A program made the position numbers and the translations under genes. A DNA stretch of 24,000 nt from an archaeon. GTDB taxonomy: Archaea; AGJL01; Methanococci; Methanococcales; Methanocaldococcaceae. Shown here piece by piece: positions 2,055 to 19,208 of the stretch; the first letter of the stretch is position 1, and every line of letters starts with the position of its first letter. The notes under the pieces were generated by a model, which saw only the letters and a program-made list of their open reading frames with translations, had not been told where the DNA came from and made no database searches. The stretch spans positions 40,188 through 64,187 of the forward strand of contig JAJRSC010000005.1 of assembly GCA_024278985.1 (NCBI GenBank), read 5' to 3'.

Positions 2055-2983
2055 AATAGTTCCTTTCTAAGTTCTCCTAAGGTAGTATTTATTTCAGCAA
2101 AAGCATTATGCCTATGAATACTCTCAAAATTTATCTGTTTTATATGAACTTTTGTTTCATCTGGTAGATGGTTGAATTTTTTAACAATTCTGTTTGCCAT
2201 TTCCCTAACACAATCCTCTACAAATTTAGGGTTAGTATGGCTTTTTTTAACAACATATGCCTCATCTACTCTCTTCAATATTCCATAAATTTCTGCACTC
2301 ATTGAATTTTTTATTATATTAATAATATCTAAAATCTCAACATAATAATCTTCTGGAATTTCAAGAATTATTTTTCCAATTCCTCTTTGGTTGTGGGTTG
2401 CAAAAATAACACTATCCAATATTTTTAAAATATCCTCATCACTAAATCCTTTATTTTTTAAATTTTCAATACATATTTCTTTTATTAAGTTCTGAGCACA
2501 TGGGCATGCAGTTATTCCAACAACTTCTGCTCCTACTATTTTAGTAATCTTTAAATTATCATTTTCTTTAATTCCTTTAGCCCCTCCAATTATTTTATGA
2601 ACTTCTTGAGAGATTTTTTTTGAGATTGGACTCTTTTCTTCTAACATAAAATCACTAATCATTAACACCTCAGCCCTATTTGCATATTCATGTTTCTTAA
2701 ACAATCTTTTAACAATTTCCTCACATATTGTTTCCATTTCATAACTCTCCATTTTTAATGCTTCATCAATTATTTCCTCTATAACTTCTGGATGCCTTGA
2801 CATATGTATTCCTTTTTGGGAACTTGGTAAATTAACAGAAACATCAAAGGTTGGAAGTAATATTATAGGTCTTTTTCCATTTCTTTTTATTCTAACAAGT
2901 TTTTTTAAATTAGATATACCAACCTTTGTTAAGGATATTTTTATATCTGGTTCTATATTTTGTATATCACATTTCCAATTCAT
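2051..2983 (-). CDS. mptA: GTP cyclohydrolase MptA (FolE2/MptA family, methanopterin biosynthesis)
   Basis: 310 aa with the family hallmarks QKGIHMSR and ITACPCAQ. Methanogen genomic context. Confidence 0.85.
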   Translation of the reverse strand: MNWKCDIQNIEPDIKISLTKVGISNLKKLVRIKRNGKRPIILLPTFDVSVNLPSSQKGIHMSRHPEVIEEIIDEALKMESYEMETICEEIVKRLFKKHEYANRAEVLMISDFMLEEKSPISKKISQEVHKIIGGAKGIKENDNLKITKIVGAEVVGITACPCAQNLIKEICIENLKNKGFSDEDILKILDSVIFATHNQRGIGKIILEIPEDYYVEILDIINIIKNSMSAEIYGILKRVDEAYVVKKSHTNPKFVEDCVREMANRIVKKFNHLPDETKVHIKQINFESIHRHNAFAEINTTLGELRKELL

Positions 2984-4196
2984 TTTTATCCCCTAATAAA
3001 ACATCAATTAACTCTCTTGATAGTCTATAATAAACATTGTTTCCTTTTCTTTCTTTATAAATATATCCCATTTCATAAATATCTGAAAGATGTGTTCCAA
3101 TAGTTCCAGGAGATTTTTTTAAATATTCTGAAAGTTGTGTTACTGTTGTACTACCTCCAAGTTTTGCCATAGCCTTAACAATTTCAGATTGAGCAGGAGT
3201 TAAATGGTTTAAAATCTGATGTCCAATACTTATTCCCAAAGAATGTATTGCTTCACTAACAATTTTCTCATCTATTTTATTTAAGTTCTTTTTTATAGCT
3301 ATTGATATAGATTCTGAACATGTCATTATTATTTTTCTTGGTATCCCATCACATAATTCAACAATTTTATCAATTGCCTCTCTAGTAAATGGTTCAAATT
3401 CTTCAGCCCCTTCTATATGAGCATCTTCTAATCTTCTCCTAATTAAGTCATATGATTCTTCTGTTGAAAGAGGAGGCATATTTATAATCTTTGGAATTCT
3501 ATCCTTTATAGGTGGAGATATTTTAGTTAGGTCTTCCATCAATGTTGGAGAACCTGCTAAGAATGTTAATATTCCTTCTTCATATAAAAAAGAATGGAAA
3601 AATTGTAAGAGTGATAAACAACTTTTCTTAGCAAATTGGTCAGCTTCATCTATTAAGATTATACATAATTTATTCCTATCTTTAACTTCATTAATTAAAA
3701 ATTCTAAATCCCTCTCTATTCTCTCTCTTGGATAATGTATAGGAACTTTATCTCCATAGTTGTTTAATTTTTTGTACATATCAATTATTTTAGAGGAATA
3801 CTCCAAATAATCAGATTTTATTGTTCCATTTATTGTAAATAAATTTTCTGTTAAAATATTGTATAGTAATTGGATTAAAAACTGTCTTGGAGTTATTTGT
3901 GATGCTGTAAGTTCTACGACCCAATGACCTTGTTTTTTTGTAGCATAGTATATAATATTAAGCATTGAACTTTTACCAATTCCTTTAGTTCCTACAATTG
4001 CTGCATTGGCAACACTACCATGCATTGCTGACCCTAAAATTTCTCCAATTTCTCTTAACTCACTAACCCTTCCAACAAAAAATTTTGTGTTTCCTCTAAT
4101 AGGCTTTTCTGAAAATGGATTATACTTTAATTTAAGTTTATGCATAGTGTTTGTTATCGACCTTGCCGATTCTTGTATAAATTCAATTGGGTCCAT
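2967..4196 (-). CDS. Highly divergent Orc1/Cdc6-like AAA+ ATPase with C-terminal winged helix
   Basis: 409 aa. Canonical Walker A GTKGIGKSS and Walker B CIILIDEADQF. Lid-like GIPRKIIMTCSESISIAI in the position of GDAR-AIDLL. C-terminal wHTH (TVTQLSEYLKKSPGTIGTHLSDIYEMGYIYKERKGNNVYYRLS). GGTGAG Shine-Dalgarno 4 nt before the ATG. Faces a 620-bp AT-rich gap. Confidence 0.6.
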   Translation of the reverse strand: MDPIEFIQESARSITNTMHKLKLKYNPFSEKPIRGNTKFFVGRVSELREIGEILGSAMHGSVANAAIVGTKGIGKSSMLNIIYYATKKQGHWVVELTASQITPRQFLIQLLYNILTENLFTINGTIKSDYLEYSSKIIDMYKKLNNYGDKVPIHYPRERIERDLEFLINEVKDRNKLCIILIDEADQFAKKSCLSLLQFFHSFLYEEGILTFLAGSPTLMEDLTKISPPIKDRIPKIINMPPLSTEESYDLIRRRLEDAHIEGAEEFEPFTREAIDKIVELCDGIPRKIIMTCSESISIAIKKNLNKIDEKIVSEAIHSLGISIGHQILNHLTPAQSEIVKAMAKLGGSTTVTQLSEYLKKSPGTIGTHLSDIYEMGYIYKERKGNNVYYRLSRELIDVLLGDKNELEM

Positions 4197-4230
4197 AAAC
4201 TCACCACTAAATTACTATCGTAATTAGAAT

Positions 4231-4254
4231 ATATGCACTTCGAAAATTAGAAAC
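4231..4254. repeat. Diverged copy of the ATGCA-TTCGAAAA-type element, about 35 nt upstream of the Orc-like start
   Basis: atatgcacttcgaaaattagaaac aligns with catacatgcaattcgaaaactcgaaaac at 5711-5738. It sits beside a probable TATA (rc gcatatattc). Confidence 0.5.
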
Positions 4255-4325
4255 TTTCTATTTTAGAATTTCGTCAATTAACTAAATTTAAATCTATAAA
4301 ATAATTTTTTATTTCTTTTAAAAAC

Positions 4326-4373
4326 GTGAATATAATTTTATTACATTAAAAATATTGTGAATATAATTTTATT
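4326..4373 (+). repeat. Two perfect 17-bp direct repeats GTGAATATAATTTTATT (4326-4342, 4357-4373), 31-bp period
   Basis: Read directly from the sequence; both copies are identical. Confidence 0.9.
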
Positions 4374-4471
4374 TTTTTGTATTTTATATTAATAATCCCT
4401 CAGAAATAAACTTTAATAATTTTACAATAAATATATAAACTATTCTTATGAAATAAAGTTTTTTTTAATTC

Positions 4472-4483
4472 TTCTCATGAGAA
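4472..4483. repeat. Perfect 12-bp palindrome TTCTCATGAGAA
   Basis: Self-complementary on inspection. Confidence 0.85.
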
Positions 4484-4661
4484 TAAAAAATACATAAGTA
4501 AATATAAATTATCATGAATCTAACATTTTTATAATATATAAACTATGAATCAAATTTTATTATAGTTATAACAAGTATAAAATATCTGAGATAAAAATAA
4601 AATAAAAAAAGAAATCATTTTATATTAGAAATTATGTTGAGTTTTATCAAATCTATAAAAA

Positions 4662-4680
4662 ATTGAAAATTATTTTCAAT
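4662..4680. repeat. 9-1-9 palindrome ATTGAAAAT-T-ATTTTCAAT
   Basis: The two arms are exact reverse complements. Confidence 0.85.
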
Positions 4681-4829
4681 ATTAACATAGTAATAAAAAT
4701 CCATAAATTTATGATAGTAAATTATAATATGAATCTAAAGGTATTTATATGATAAAAAGAAAAAATAATTGAGCAACTGTAAAGATAAAATATAAAATTT
4801 TATTAAAAAAATAAAAATTGGTGATTAAT

Positions 4830-5357
4830 ATGGAAAGATTGCCATATGAGGTCGTATCAACTATATTCAGAAAAGCCATTTTACACTATTTAGTAATAAC
4901 CGGACAAGTATTTCCTACAAAATTATCCAAAGATTTGGGTATATCAAAAGGACTCTCATCAGGGTTTTTAAGACTATGTAACGCTTTAGGTGTAGTAAAA
5001 AGAGAAAGAAACAAACATAAAGTTTTATATTCACTAACGGGTAAAGGAGTGGCAGTTTTAAAAAGATTAGCGCCCGAAATATTTGATTTAAGTTTTAGTG
5101 AGGTTTTCGAAACACTTTCGAAAAGTAAGTTTTCTACTAAACATTACCCATTAGCCAAGTTAGGATTTAGAATAGAGTATGAAGAAGATAACTTCAAGGG
5201 AGTGACTTTTTACTTTTATGACTATGATAACAACCTTTTAGGAACGGTATATAGGAATTCTCAGAATATTTGGTGGTGTAGTATATGTAAAAAAGAGGCA
5301 TGTAAGCATATCGATTACGCCAAAAAGCTATATAATAAATTGAAAAATATAAATTAA
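4830..5357 (+). CDS. Winged-helix DNA-binding protein with C-terminal SWIM-like zinc finger, function unknown
   Basis: GGTGAT Shine-Dalgarno 4 nt before ATG 4830 (the track's TTG at 4818 is less likely). wHTH-like segment PTKLSKDLGISKGLSSGFLRLCNALGVVKRERNKHKVLYSLTGKG. C-terminal WWCSICKKEACKHIDYAKKLY shows a CxxC-x4-CxH pattern. 175 codons without a stop in very AT-rich DNA. Confidence 0.6.
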   Translation: MERLPYEVVSTIFRKAILHYLVITGQVFPTKLSKDLGISKGLSSGFLRLCNALGVVKRERNKHKVLYSLTGKGVAVLKRLAPEIFDLSFSEVFETLSKSKFSTKHYPLAKLGFRIEYEEDNFKGVTFYFYDYDNNLLGTVYRNSQNIWWCSICKKEACKHIDYAKKLYNKLKNIN

Positions 5358-5360
5358 TAA

Positions 5361-5393
5361 TTTTCGAGTTTTCGAGTTGCATGTATGTATATG
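5361..5393. repeat. Left arm of a 33-bp inverted repeat (TTTTCGAGTTTTCGAGTTGCATGTATGTATATG)
   Basis: Its reverse complement matches 5705-5737 at 32 of 33 positions. Begins 3 nt after the stop of the wHTH-SWIM gene. Confidence 0.9.
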
Positions 5394-5704
5394 CCACGGT
5401 TGTGTATATAGAAAATTTTTAGAAAAAAATTATCACAAAAATTTTAGGCAGTAGTATGCTCTTTTTTAGTTTAGATAATACAGTATTTTAGAGATTTTAT
5501 AAAAATGTCAACAAATATTTTTTTGTTTTTGTGAAAAATAATAATTTGACATTATTATATTTTATAATTTTTATTTTATTTTATTTTTTTAATTTAACAA
5601 ATAAATTTTTTATAAAATTCTTTTATTGTACAAAAACAAAAATTAATAAAAAATTTTTGTTGTGATAATTTTGGTTTATGTGTTTTGTATATCTTTCCCT
5701 TAAC
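5394..5704. other. 311-bp ultra-AT-rich core between the inverted repeats (DUE-like)
   Basis: I count 10 G/C in 5521-5640 (120 nt). There is an uninterrupted 47-nt A/T tract at 5551-5597. Inner imperfect inverted repeat aaattatcacaaaaatttt / aaaatttttgttgtgataattt. 8-bp inverted repeat AATGTCAA/TTGACATT. No ORF. Confidence 0.6.
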
Positions 5705-5737
5705 CATATACATACATGCAATTCGAAAACTCGAAAA
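5705..5737. repeat. Right arm of the 33-bp inverted repeat (CATATACATACATGCAATTCGAAAACTCGAAAA)
   Basis: One mismatch to the left arm, at 5722 (T versus C). Contains a tandem TCGAAAAC x2. Confidence 0.9.
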
Positions 5738-5840
5738 CCTTATTTAAAAAGTGATTATATTTATGTATCAACAATACACAAGTGTTTTTAAATTTCAAAA
5801 AAATAGTAATAAAACATTTACCTTAAAATAGAAATATTTC

Positions 5841-6197
5841 CTATATATCACTCGAAAACTCGAAAATACAGCAGTCTAACAGAAATAGTGATATAAAAGA
5901 ATTGTATTTATTTTTTTTGTATTTCCTCAATAATTCTATAAACTTAGGAGTATTTTTTTTCTTTAATTTAAACCTAATCTTACCTCTAACTTTGTATTTT
6001 GCTAAAATACCCATATTACATAAATCATTTAAGTATTTATATAGTGTTATATATTTAAAATCTACTTTGTTATAAATATCTTCAATTTTAAAACTTTTTA
6101 GTTTAATAACTATTTCAACAAGCTTTTTATATTTTCTATCAACTATGTAGGGAAGTATTTTAAGCCATGGAATTTTTAATTCTCTAATTGTTTTTAA
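5841..6197 (-). other. In-frame continuation after the TAG stop of the upstream ORF, encoding a winged-helix domain (split gene, pseudogene or readthrough)
   Basis: My reverse translation directly after TAG 6200-6198 gives LKTIRELKIPWLKILPYIVDRKYKKLVEIVIKLKSFKIEDIYNKVDFKYITLYKYLNDLCNMGILAKYKVRGKIRFKLKKKNTPKFIELLRKYKK...SSDI*. That is 118 sense codons with no stop in DNA that appears very A/T-rich by eye. There is no ATG/GTG/TTG before residue 62. Confidence 0.55.
5849..5868. repeat. Additional direct copy of the CTCGAAAACTCGAAAA core
   Basis: cactcgaaaactcgaaaata. The core at 5851-5866 is identical to 5730-5737 plus the preceding unit. It is enclosed by a perfect 9-bp inverted repeat, TATATCACT (5844-5852) and AGTGATATA (5887-5895). 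Confidence 0.8.
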
Positions 6198-6878
6198 CTA
6201 CCTTTTACAGTGTTTTAATATTATTTCAATTACTTCTAAATTACCATTTGTTATATTATAAAGATGTTCTGCTACTTTTCTACTAATACAATAGCCAAGT
6301 TTTTTAGCAAAGTATCTAATAACTCCAATAATATTTATTATTCCTTCAGGAAAATGTTTTAAAACTTCTTTATGGCACTCTATAGGATACCTTAGAACAA
6401 CACTTATATTATTTTTTCTTAGTTCTTTAACAAATCTTATAAAACTCTTTTTATAGTTCCATTTTCTAATGTCATGAATATCCAAAACAATAATTGGATT
6501 TATTGATTTTAATATAGCTAATAACTTACCTCTAACTTTATAAAAATCCCAATTTTTGATATTGATAAAAAACTCCTTTATAGCCTTAAACCATGCCTTT
6601 TTAGCTCTATAATGTTTTTTAAAATATTTTTTTTCTACAATATAATTAAATAAATTTTCAAACCATCCAGAATTTTTATTAACTAAATAATATTTATCTT
6701 TTAATAAAAATGCTAATCTTAAAATTATCTTTTTAATGTTTGGAGTTCCCAATACTCTAAATATTGGAAATTTGTTAAAATAAAATTCACCACCCTCCTC
6801 TAAAATATTCTCTCTATGAGTTGGAAATAAATATAATCCATTAAAAAATTCTTCAGGTATATCTTTAATTATCATCAT
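6198..6878 (-). CDS. Degenerate AAA+ (Orc1/Cdc6-like fold) protein lacking intact ATPase motifs; ends at a TAG followed by an in-frame WH domain
   Basis: 226 aa. P-loop position reads VLGTPNIKK (lysine kept, glycines lost). Walker-B position reads PIIVLDIHD (no DE). Lid or sensor-2 position reads NITNGNLEVIEIIL (compare GDAR-AIDLL; arginine lost). The ATGATG start overlaps the cbiL stop by 14 nt. Confidence 0.5.
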   Translation of the reverse strand: MMIIKDIPEEFFNGLYLFPTHRENILEEGGEFYFNKFPIFRVLGTPNIKKIILRLAFLLKDKYYLVNKNSGWFENLFNYIVEKKYFKKHYRAKKAWFKAIKEFFINIKNWDFYKVRGKLLAILKSINPIIVLDIHDIRKWNYKKSFIRFVKELRKNNISVVLRYPIECHKEVLKHFPEGIINIIGVIRYFAKKLGYCISRKVAEHLYNITNGNLEVIEIILKHCKR

Positions 6879-17521: not shown

Positions 17522-17699
17522 TTTTTCACCTCATATAATAATTATATATTATTACTAAATAAATTATTTGTATTACTATATAAGTTTTTTTATAATTATA
17601 GTATTAACATATTTTATCTTAAGATTTAAATTTATCTTTATATGTGTTCATAATATATTTAATTAATATATATAAAAATAATAAATCTTAGGAATTTAT

Positions 17700-18111
17700 A
17701 GCTTTTAATAAATAAAAATTAGTTCTATTAAATACTTAGATAATATTTATCACGCTAAAAACTTTTTATTTTTAGTTTAGAGGATTTTAATCGGTTATTT
17801 TTCGATTTTAAGGATTTTTATCAATTTTCTAAGGGTCGCGTATTTTAATTATTTTAAATATTTGGATGTAGTGAATTATCGAGATTTTTAAAAGATTTTA
17901 GACAATTATTTTAAAATTAAAATTTTCCCAATAAACAAAACTTATTTTCAAAATTAAAAAGTTTTTAGATTAAAAAATTAGAAAAGAAAGATAAATTAAA
18001 AACTTCAGGAGTTTATAAATAAAAGCTATTGCCTACCCCTTGACAAATTACATAATAGAAAAAGTTATATATTAGAAGAGATATTATACTAAATACGTAA
18101 AATTGCCTCTT
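17700..18111 (+). promoter_or_regulatory. CRISPR leader (left boundary approximate)
   Basis: Long AT-rich non-coding block upstream of repeat 1. It contains five GATTTT(T)A motifs (17783-17900). A TTATATAT box lies at 18065-18072, about 40 nt before repeat 1. Confidence 0.6.
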
Positions 18112-19208
18112 GTTAAAATCAGACCGTTACGGTATGGAAACCTGATTACTTTAATTTTTTTAACTTCTTTTTTGTCTTGTTAAAATCAGACCGTTACGGT
18201 ATGGAAACTTATTGATGAATTTGAATATTTTGATTGATGTATTGAGTTAAAATCAGACCGTTACGGTATGGAAACTATCTCTTTATTCTCATGCCTCTAT
18301 CCCTCCATATTTGTTAAAATCAGACCGTTACGGTATGGAAACTTTAAATTTAAGAAAAACCCTGAATTATGGAAAAAAAGTTAAAATCAGACCGTTACGG
18401 TATGGAAACAAATCAATTAATATATTTTTCTCACCATCAATTTCAGTTAAAATCAGACTGTTACGGTATGGAAACGACAATTAATCCTGAAGCCCCAGTA
18501 ACAGTAATACTGTTAAAATCAGACCGTTACGGTATGGAAACCAATAAAAGATAAGAAAATATCAAAGCCATATTATTAGTTAAAATCAGACCGTTACGGT
18601 ATGGAAACGCAACTGCTATTAATATCCCTGCTCCAAGCAATATTGTTAAAATCAGACCGTTACGGTATGGAAACATCAAAATATTCAAATTCACCAATAA
18701 TAAAAATCAAAAGTTAAAATCAGACCGTTACGGTATGGAAACTTAACAAGTTTTTTAGTTTTTGATATTAAATTATCTGTTAAAATCAGACCGTTACGGT
18801 ATGGAAACAATATTTTTTTTAGATATATAATATATGATGGGGTAGTTAAAATCAGACCGTTACGGTATGGAAACATCAAAATATTCAAATTCACCAATAA
18901 TAAAAATCAAAAGTTAAAATCAGACCGTTACGGTATGGAAACATTACATTATCATAATGAGAATATAAAAGAGGTGAGGTTAAAATCAGACCGTTACGGT
19001 ATGGAAACCAGTTTTTTGTATGTTCTTCATATTGTCTTTCTTTTAGTTAAAATCAGACCGTTACGGTATGGAAACATAAAATTACAGCATTACAACTCTT
19101 GCTGTAATAAAGGTTAAAATCAGACCGTTACGGTATGGAAACTTTTTTATTGTTGAGGTTAGCATATCCTCATTTGGCGTTAAAATCAGACCGTTACGGT
19201 ATGGAAAC
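18112..19208 (+). CRISPR. CRISPR array: 17 x 30-nt repeats GTTAAAATCAGACCGTTACGGTATGGAAAC, 16 spacers of 36-38 nt
   Basis: Repeat starts: 18112, 18179, 18246, 18313, 18380, 18446, 18512, 18579, 18645, 18713, 18779, 18845, 18913, 18979, 19046, 19113, 19179. Plus orientation follows from the GAAAC 3' end, the leader on the left and a degenerate repeat on the right. Repeat 6 has C>T at 18459. Confidence 0.97.

Follow-up and report, generated by a model that had tools for sequence, protein, structure and literature searches.

A conserved five-box array in the predicted replication origin region of Methanococcales

The window analyzed here is a 24,000-nucleotide stretch of DNA from a Methanocaldococcus species. 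It contains a non-coding gap of 633 bp, IGR-A, which extends from the start codon of a gene coding for an Orc1/Cdc6-like protein (ATG at 4196, minus strand) to the start codon of a gene coding for a winged-helix protein (ATG at 4830, preceded by GGTGA). A second non-coding gap, IGR-B, lies outside the block that was reported in the preliminary description of this DNA, between the winged-helix gene and a convergent gene coding for a protein of about 350 aa. The main features of the locus are the following:

2967-4196, minus strand: Orc1/Cdc6-like gene (409 aa; "Mc-pRIP", orthologue of MJ0774) with an AAA+ domain plus an ArsR-type winged helix.
4197-4829, no strand: IGR-A, a non-coding gap orthologous, by synteny and by the published prediction, to the in-silico predicted oriC of Methanococcales.
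4830-5357, plus strand: winged-helix plus zinc-finger gene (175 aa), to whose ATG the array of A-boxes is position-locked.
5358-5843, no strand: IGR-B, non-coding.
5844-6878, minus strand: conserved neighbor gene with a C-terminal winged helix (343-356 aa in relatives) and an in-frame TAG at 6198-6200.

The gene order shared by the orthologous loci is methylase, ~350-aa gene, gap B, winged-helix gene, gap A, Orc-like gene, MptA, ATP-grasp gene, and TFE. The methylase gene is replaced by an MCM gene in Methanotorris igneus, M. maripaludis, M. aeolicus, and M. voltae; in Methanotorris and Methanococcus, MCM is 2.7 kb away. The ~350-aa gene adjoins MCM in four species. In a contig of the M. jannaschii type (locus L016, 3050-4223), integrase-like and HTH_7 genes adjoin the methylase gene, two genes from the island.

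IGR-A has a GC content of 14.7%, whereas the Orc-like gene has 29% and the window as a whole 26%, in line with the earlier statement that it is more A/T-rich than its coding flanks. The repeats, palindromes, and base counts given in the preliminary description were all found where it had placed them. They include GTGAATATAATTTTATT at 4326 and 4357 (31 bp from start to start), ATGAATCTAA at 4514 and 4729, ATGAATCAAA at 4545, the palindrome TTCTCATGAGAA at 4472, a 9-1-9 palindrome (ATTGAAAAT-T-ATTTTCAAT, 4662-4680), and TTCGAAAA at 4239, adjoining the TATA-like GCATATATTCT (4226-4236, minus strand). There are 8 G/C among the 60 positions of 4381-4440 and again 8 among the 60 of 4561-4620. No conserved small ORF was found within 4197-4829, since the small ORFs present there are not kept in relatives.

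Some of these features lost their significance on comparison. Neither TTCTCATGAGAA nor the 9-1-9 palindrome is kept in the aligned relatives, and both were dropped as functional parts, although they had been counted as part of an origin pattern. The A/T-richness, also put forward as a sign of an origin, is not diagnostic. Duplex stability calculated along the 24-kb window showed that several other intergenic stretches, including the CRISPR leader, are as A/T-rich and as easy to melt as the block, or more so. The block is thus not uniquely unstable. The claim that the block is the largest gap besides the CRISPR leader depends on how the gene at 5844-6878 is treated: it stands (633 bp, against 590 bp for the leader itself) when this gene is read through its TAG, but under strict ORF calls the gap at 5358-6197 is larger. 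GC and AT skew within the window track gene orientation and are uninformative on replication. No known RNA families were detected in 4100-6000 with Rfam at gathering or permissive thresholds, and a scan for bacterial-type promoters and terminators, a type of scan irrelevant to an archaeon, gave no enrichment.

IGR-A contains an array of five boxes. Using a weight matrix trained on other species only, with the window left out, we found that the five boxes of IGR-A score between 14.7 and 15.2 bits, and that the next best site on either strand of the 24 kb reaches 8.9 bits. With the threshold set to 12 bits, the block yields five matches and the remaining window none, against 0.03 expected from shuffled sequences (maximum 2). 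The array and the core that it encloses are composed as follows:

4320-4338, minus strand: A-box 5, AAATTATATTCACGTTTTT, 15.0 bits; nearest to the Orc-like gene, 31 bp from box 4, in an aligned position kept throughout the order.
4351-4369, minus strand: A-box 4, AAATTATATTCACAATATT, 14.7 bits; kept at about 464 bp from the ATG of the winged-helix gene.
4403-4469, no strand: central core between the box pairs, 66 bp; the direct repeats GAAATAAACTTT (4403) and GAAATAAAGTTT (4450) surround a TATA-like AAATATATAAAC (4429-4440).
4508-4526, minus strand: A-box 3, ATGTTAGATTCATGATAAT, 15.2 bits; kept at about 308 bp.
4539-4557, minus strand: A-box 2, AAATTTGATTCATAGTTTA, 14.8 bits; kept at about 277 bp, 31 bp from box 3.
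4723-4741, minus strand: A-box 1, CCTTTAGATTCATATTATA, 14.7 bits; kept at about 93 bp, abutting the upstream (BRE) side of the TATA box of the winged-helix gene.

The boxes conform to the consensus TTwKATTCAYrAT (13-19 bp; core KATTCAY), and in every species examined all five lie in a single orientation on the same strand. They are arranged as one solo box and two pairs, about 187 bp from each other, and the array spans more than 400 bp. The 30-31 bp that separate the boxes of a pair correspond to about three helical turns, which places them on the same face of the helix. Downstream of A-box 1 there is a TATA-like TATTTATATGA (4742-4752), followed by a conserved AATAATTGAGCAAC (4764-4777). A paired-box scan of viral contigs returned more than 119 scattered single matches, which we attribute to chance and regard as uninformative.

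Alignment across the Methanococcales, which the preliminary description had suggested as a check, revealed that the GTGAAT/ATGAAT boxes are strongly conserved in both sequence and position. In Methanocaldococcus, they start at about 93, 277, 308, 464, and 495 bp from the ATG of the winged-helix gene. Methanotorris, Methanothermococcus, M. aeolicus, and M. maripaludis deviate from these positions by no more than about 12 bp; in M. voltae the boxes are shifted further and box 3 is missing. The majority-base fraction is 0.91 in the box cores and 0.64 in the surrounding gap. It reaches 0.84 in the central core, where the direct repeat (consensus GAAATAAAsTTT) occurs on either side of the TATA-like center. 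Judging from these alignments, the near-constant positions of the boxes throughout the order indicate that the DNA of the block is clearly functional. The M. jannaschii-type locus L016 has a gap of 687 bp with the same five boxes; this is reportedly also the length of the M. jannaschii oriC interval in print. The distance between box 5 and the ATG of the Orc-like gene ranges from 123 to 363 bp among loci. In M. aeolicus (L012, approximately 3700-3960), an extra ~240 bp separates box 5 from the Orc-like gene and includes three tandem copies of AATATTCAAT.

The opposite edge of IGR-A bears a different type of box. Its arrangement suggests a putative promoter of the Orc-like gene:

4226-4253, minus strand: putative promoter of the Orc-like gene, in which the TATA-like sequence at 4226-4236 is immediately preceded by a degenerate B-motif, TTTCTAATTTTCGAAG (4238-4253).

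In those loci where the Orc-like gene is adjacent, TTTCGAnTTTTCGAAA followed by a TATA sequence is kept (alignment A2, columns 673-700). The two putative edge promoters of IGR-A are marked by A-box 1 and by TTTCGAnTTTTCGAAA, respectively.

The preliminary description had counted the adjacency of an initiator gene as part of the classical layout. This adjacency exists in the window and in most loci examined, but two species, M. indicus and M. infernus, do not show it. The Orc-like gene of M. indicus lies 24 bp behind the gene of a hydrogenase large subunit (L008, 3977-4000) with no boxes nearby, about 450 kb from the array. The boxes stay beside the winged-helix gene, at 94, 279, 310, 467, and 498 bp (L014, 3916-5000), and the array faces and abuts the GINS gene of a GINS-L44E-S27E cluster. 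The Orc-like gene and the array of M. infernus are likewise far apart, and the array faces an F420 ligase gene (L015, 4439-5000). On the M. indicus chromosome CP186926.1, the array maps near 864 kb and the Orc-like gene near 1,311 kb; on that of M. infernus, CP002009.1, the array maps near 106 kb. It is thus the winged-helix gene, and not the Orc-like gene, to which the array is anchored. Because it remains intact where the Orc-like gene has moved away, we consider it a self-standing cis element and not merely the promoter of that gene. It also follows that an initiator gene beside the origin is not a universal arrangement in this order. These two species offer an opportunity in this sense, as skew or read-depth analysis of their genomes can tell whether the array or the Orc-like gene marks the origin.

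The description of the Orc-like protein as a very divergent member of the Orc1/Cdc6 group is a fair one. Its translation contains a Walker A motif (GTKGIGKS), a Walker B motif (ILIDEAD), and a C-terminal winged helix, and it matches the Pfam families AAA, AAA_22, and HTH_5, a domain layout with which the predicted model agrees. However, the protein fails the cut-offs of the curated Orc1/Cdc6 families, with weak matches to TIGR02928 (38.6 bits versus a cut-off of 181) and PF24389 (20.5 versus 27), and 20.7 versus 501 for NF001625. Foldseek searches placed 7jgr_A, 1w5s_A, 2qby_A, 7jk6_A, and 2v1u_A at the top (E-values from 1e-10 to 5e-9), the structures being Drosophila Orc1, A. pernix ORC2 and ORC1, and S. 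solfataricus Orc1. RuvB chains follow close behind, one of them in fifth place, and the AlphaFold model used has a pLDDT of only 72.8, with TM-scores of 0.3-0.5. Searches of PDB with the sequence and with profiles gave weak Cdc6 and ArsR matches only, the best sequence match being Drosophila Cdc6 (E = 0.0019). In the model, two long helices (103-119 and 128-144) follow a strand at 92-97; they are candidates for the initiator-specific helical insertion in the AAA+ domain. Across the Methanococcales, the protein retains 68-92% identity and its winged helix is nearly invariant.

The 175-aa protein, which is kept throughout the order, combines an N-terminal winged helix with an invariant W-C-x2-C-x4-C-x-H, a SWIM-like zinc motif, and matches no Pfam family. 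For the ~350-aa protein, the Hda AAA+ lid domain is weakly matched by 4 of 11 orthologues, and the predicted model shows a faint likeness to ORC subunits, Apaf-1, and RuvB (best E = 2e-3), with nothing at E ≤ 0.001 in the fold search. A degenerate AAA+ protein of the initiator type is one possible reading of it. Sequence and profile searches of PDB gave nothing useful for either neighbor, and when their profiles were compared with that of the Orc-like protein, the match was confined to the winged helices. Orthologues of the gene at 5844-6878 (L010, 1272-2342; L011, 1166-2248; L014, 6036-7067) have a C-terminal winged helix and no P-loop. In the window, a single in-frame TAG follows codon 226 of this gene, for which the public record gives a 225-aa product, and the orthologue of M. 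villosus is also short (244 aa). For the interrupted gene of the window, a sequencing error, a split gene, and a pseudogene are all conceivable.

A second conserved element occupies IGR-B. Two 33-bp inverted arms (TTTTCGAGTTTTCGAGTTGCATGTATGTATATG; 5361-5393 on the plus strand and 5705-5737 on the minus strand), 362 bp from start to start, enclose an inner inverted pair of TTATCACAA (5430, plus strand, and 5660, minus strand) and a core with a GC content of 2-8% that ranks with the least stable DNA in the window. A third B-motif with TATATA is found at 5840-5866 on the minus strand. IGR-B was seen in every Methanococcales locus examined, and its layout and the 362-bp spacing are kept across most of the order, with some left arms diverged in Methanothermococcus and Methanococcus. 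Moreover, the arms co-vary between lineages, with compensatory changes at 14 of 38 arm positions. The tandem B-motif TTTCGAnTTTTCGA, of the TTTCGA type, is usually followed by a TATA-like sequence, and its four matches in the 24 kb (4240, 5362, 5723, and 5852) all fall within 4240-5865, one of them directly upstream of the TATA sequence of the Orc-like gene. In L016, the motif occurs at 5758, 6038, 6205, 6568, 7675, and 10252. In the window, one copy extends into the final codons of the ~350-aa gene, a possible reason for the conserved FEFS / FRVFE C-terminus of its product.

For the Methanococcales and Methanopyrus, reviews either find no recognizable Orc1/Cdc6 or mention an in-silico origin only. 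The proposal that the preliminary description mentioned for this locus does exist. MJ0774 of M. jannaschii, named Mc-pRIP, was put forward as a distant Cdc6, and the adjacent gap was assigned as oriC by Z-curve analysis, with the extreme of the curve at the orthologous locus (Zhang & Zhang 2004). DoriC (5.0) extends the oriC prediction to 11-14 Methanococcales genomes, and Ori-Finder 2 lists a "Methanococcaceae ORB", TT[TA][GT]ATTCA[TC][GA]AT[AT]T[AT]T[AT]. This motif is the same box that we derived independently from the alignments. The interpretation of the block as an origin is therefore a rediscovery of a published in-silico prediction, and as such already known. The prediction is described as unvalidated in a review, and other authors treat the initiator as missing. 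In agreement with the preliminary description, the literature searched contained no experimental origin mapping in Methanococcales by marker frequency, ChIP, autonomous replication, or initiator binding. The published reports, as far as consulted, do not include the fixed five-box architecture, its anchoring to the winged-helix gene, the rearrangement in M. indicus and M. infernus, or IGR-B.

With the evidence from sequence comparison leaning slightly in its favor, we read IGR-A as the chromosomal origin region of Methanococcales, or a large part of it, and its boxes as predicted initiator sites. Five high-scoring boxes are confined to the block within 24 kb, and they are conserved in position and sequence among Methanocaldococcus, Methanotorris, Methanothermococcus, and three Methanococcus species. 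Typical archaeal promoters are compact, and the array, with more than 400 bp, far exceeds their size. In addition, replication genes are found nearby, namely the Orc-like gene in most genomes examined, MCM, and GINS; the Orc-like protein has an Orc1/Cdc6-like fold; and the array behaves as an independent cis element that persists without its Orc-like neighbor. The Z-curve and DoriC predictions point to the same locus, and the motif is that given as the ORB of the family.

If IGR-A is an origin, an initiator would bind the box pairs cooperatively, the two pairs bracketing the conserved 66-bp core. The likeliest candidate is the Orc1/Cdc6-like protein, acting through its nearly invariant winged helix and its AAA+ domain, and the adjacent winged-helix/zinc protein may assist it or substitute for it; we infer these assignments from adjacency, conservation, and analogy. 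Occupation of the boxes would distort the A/T-rich DNA and permit MCM loading and firing. Since A-box 1 lies at the predicted TFB contact site of the winged-helix gene promoter, box occupancy would also set the expression of this gene.

Several observations argue against an origin in IGR-A. The boxes are non-canonical and unidirectional, and the A/T-richness is no greater than that of other gaps. The array keeps a fixed position relative to the winged-helix gene, and box 1 extends into the promoter of this gene, which also fits an operator array. Moreover, IGR-B has the more classical layout of inverted repeats and an A/T core. Finally, marker-frequency work on M. jannaschii reportedly revealed no discrete origin, and replication can proceed independently of oriC in polyploid euryarchaea, an example being Thermococcus kodakarensis.

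Among known systems, the predicted oriC of M. jannaschii shares the gene neighborhood and the box; the window is the copy of another Methanocaldococcus species and differs in nothing essential. The mapped origins of Pyrococcus abyssi (oriC), Sulfolobus (oriC1), and Aeropyrum pernix (oriC1) are likewise intergenic, A/T-rich, and beside an initiator gene, and like IGR-A they combine repeated boxes with a nearby promoter of the initiator gene. However, the block does not have the classical archaeal oriC layout that had been attributed to it. The canonical ORB core listed for other families, TCCA-n-TGGAAA and often a G-string, is absent from the A-box consensus, which offers at most a GTGAA/TGGAA-like half-site. 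Mapped archaeal origins usually contain inverted ORBs flanking an unwinding element, whereas all five boxes of IGR-A are direct in every species. The Orc-like protein also falls well short of the family cut-off, with 38.6 bits against 181. Among class I methanogens, the predicted origins of Methanobacteriaceae (TT[TA]CACTTGAAAT...) resemble IGR-A in having multiple short boxes, but box number and spacing differ, and the apparent partial likeness of CTTGAAAT to the reverse complement of the A-box, CGTGAATC, amounts to about 5 of 10 positions. IGR-A also recalls iteron-type plasmid origins, in which several repeats of the same orientation and helical phase adjoin a gene for a DNA-binding protein, one of the repeats coinciding with part of the promoter of this gene. 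This likeness is in working principle only, as IGR-A is chromosomal, syntenic throughout the order, and devoid of a Rep-type protein.

A less probable alternative, although one to be taken seriously, is that initiation and unwinding take place in IGR-B and that IGR-A is an accessory array involved in regulation, initiator storage, or chromosome segregation. The 33-bp arms would then be the initiator sites, TTTCGAnTTTTCGA at the promoter of the Orc-like gene an autoregulatory site, and the A-boxes would be read by the winged-helix/zinc protein. The conserved inverted arms with their inner pair, the compensatory changes between lineages, the unstable core, the clustering of all B-motif matches of the window around IGR-B and the Orc-like promoter, and the different box types at the edge promoters of IGR-A are consistent with this arrangement. 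By analogy, the layout of IGR-B resembles that of a classical mapped archaeal origin more than IGR-A does. The orc7-linked origin of Halobacterium NRC-1 has inverted repeats of about 30 bp flanking an A/T-rich stretch, and both elements share long inverted repeats, highly A/T-rich DNA, and a close initiator gene; however, the repeat sequence is another one, and IGR-B lies between convergent genes and has TATA-like elements in its arms. Two functions are conceivable for IGR-B, unwinding at an origin or transcription from two convergent promoters; a TATA-like sequence always follows the B-motif, so that the arms could direct short RNAs that end at conserved T-runs. In addition, the published prediction and motif concern IGR-A, and assigning one box type to each protein is pure inference.

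It is also conceivable, if speculative, that both gaps belong to a single origin. In such a composite of about 1.7 kb, two unrelated repeat systems and three lineage-specific winged-helix proteins would jointly replace the canonical Orc1/ORB system. The direct five-box array would be locked to the winged-helix/zinc gene instead of an initiator gene, and unwinding would occur in a separate element, where 33-bp inverted repeats surround an almost pure A/T core of about 310 bp. The proteins would be the Orc-like protein, the 175-aa winged-helix/zinc protein, and the ~350-aa protein, which may join a P-loop-less AAA+-like fold to a winged helix.

We find it improbable that IGR-A serves transcription control only, the boxes being operators for the winged-helix/zinc or the Orc-like protein at two divergent genes, and replication starting elsewhere or by recombination. 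Such a role would suit the position of box 1, which abuts the TATA box of the winged-helix gene as a BRE would, and the fixed distance of the array to the ATG of this gene, compared with the variable distance to that of the Orc-like gene. Public annotation, moreover, lists the Orc-like protein and both neighbors as transcriptional regulators. Nevertheless, one promoter box would suffice, and four more boxes with a core, strictly spaced over 500 bp, are hard to explain in this manner. The recurrence of the Orc-like gene, MCM, and GINS beside the array and the published Z-curve extreme at the orthologous locus also speak against it. That the boxes are chance patterns has a negligible probability: low-complexity A/T DNA does yield many short repeats and palindromes, as the two non-conserved palindromes illustrate, but the matrix scores, the shuffles, and the box positions kept in six genera refute it.

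The reading of IGR-A as an origin region gains from our comparison an order-wide five-box architecture, the separation of array and initiator gene in two genomes, and a second element. The prediction is thereby sharpened and can be tested cheaply, since the boxes to mutate are fixed and the neighborhood supplies another candidate element along with two further candidate DNA-binding proteins.

Elsewhere in the window, no cas genes were recognized in the parts examined. In a CRISPR array at 18112-19208, a 30-nt repeat (Rfam CRISPR-DR13) occurs at least 16 times, and the array is preceded by the 590-bp A/T-rich leader at 17522-18111.
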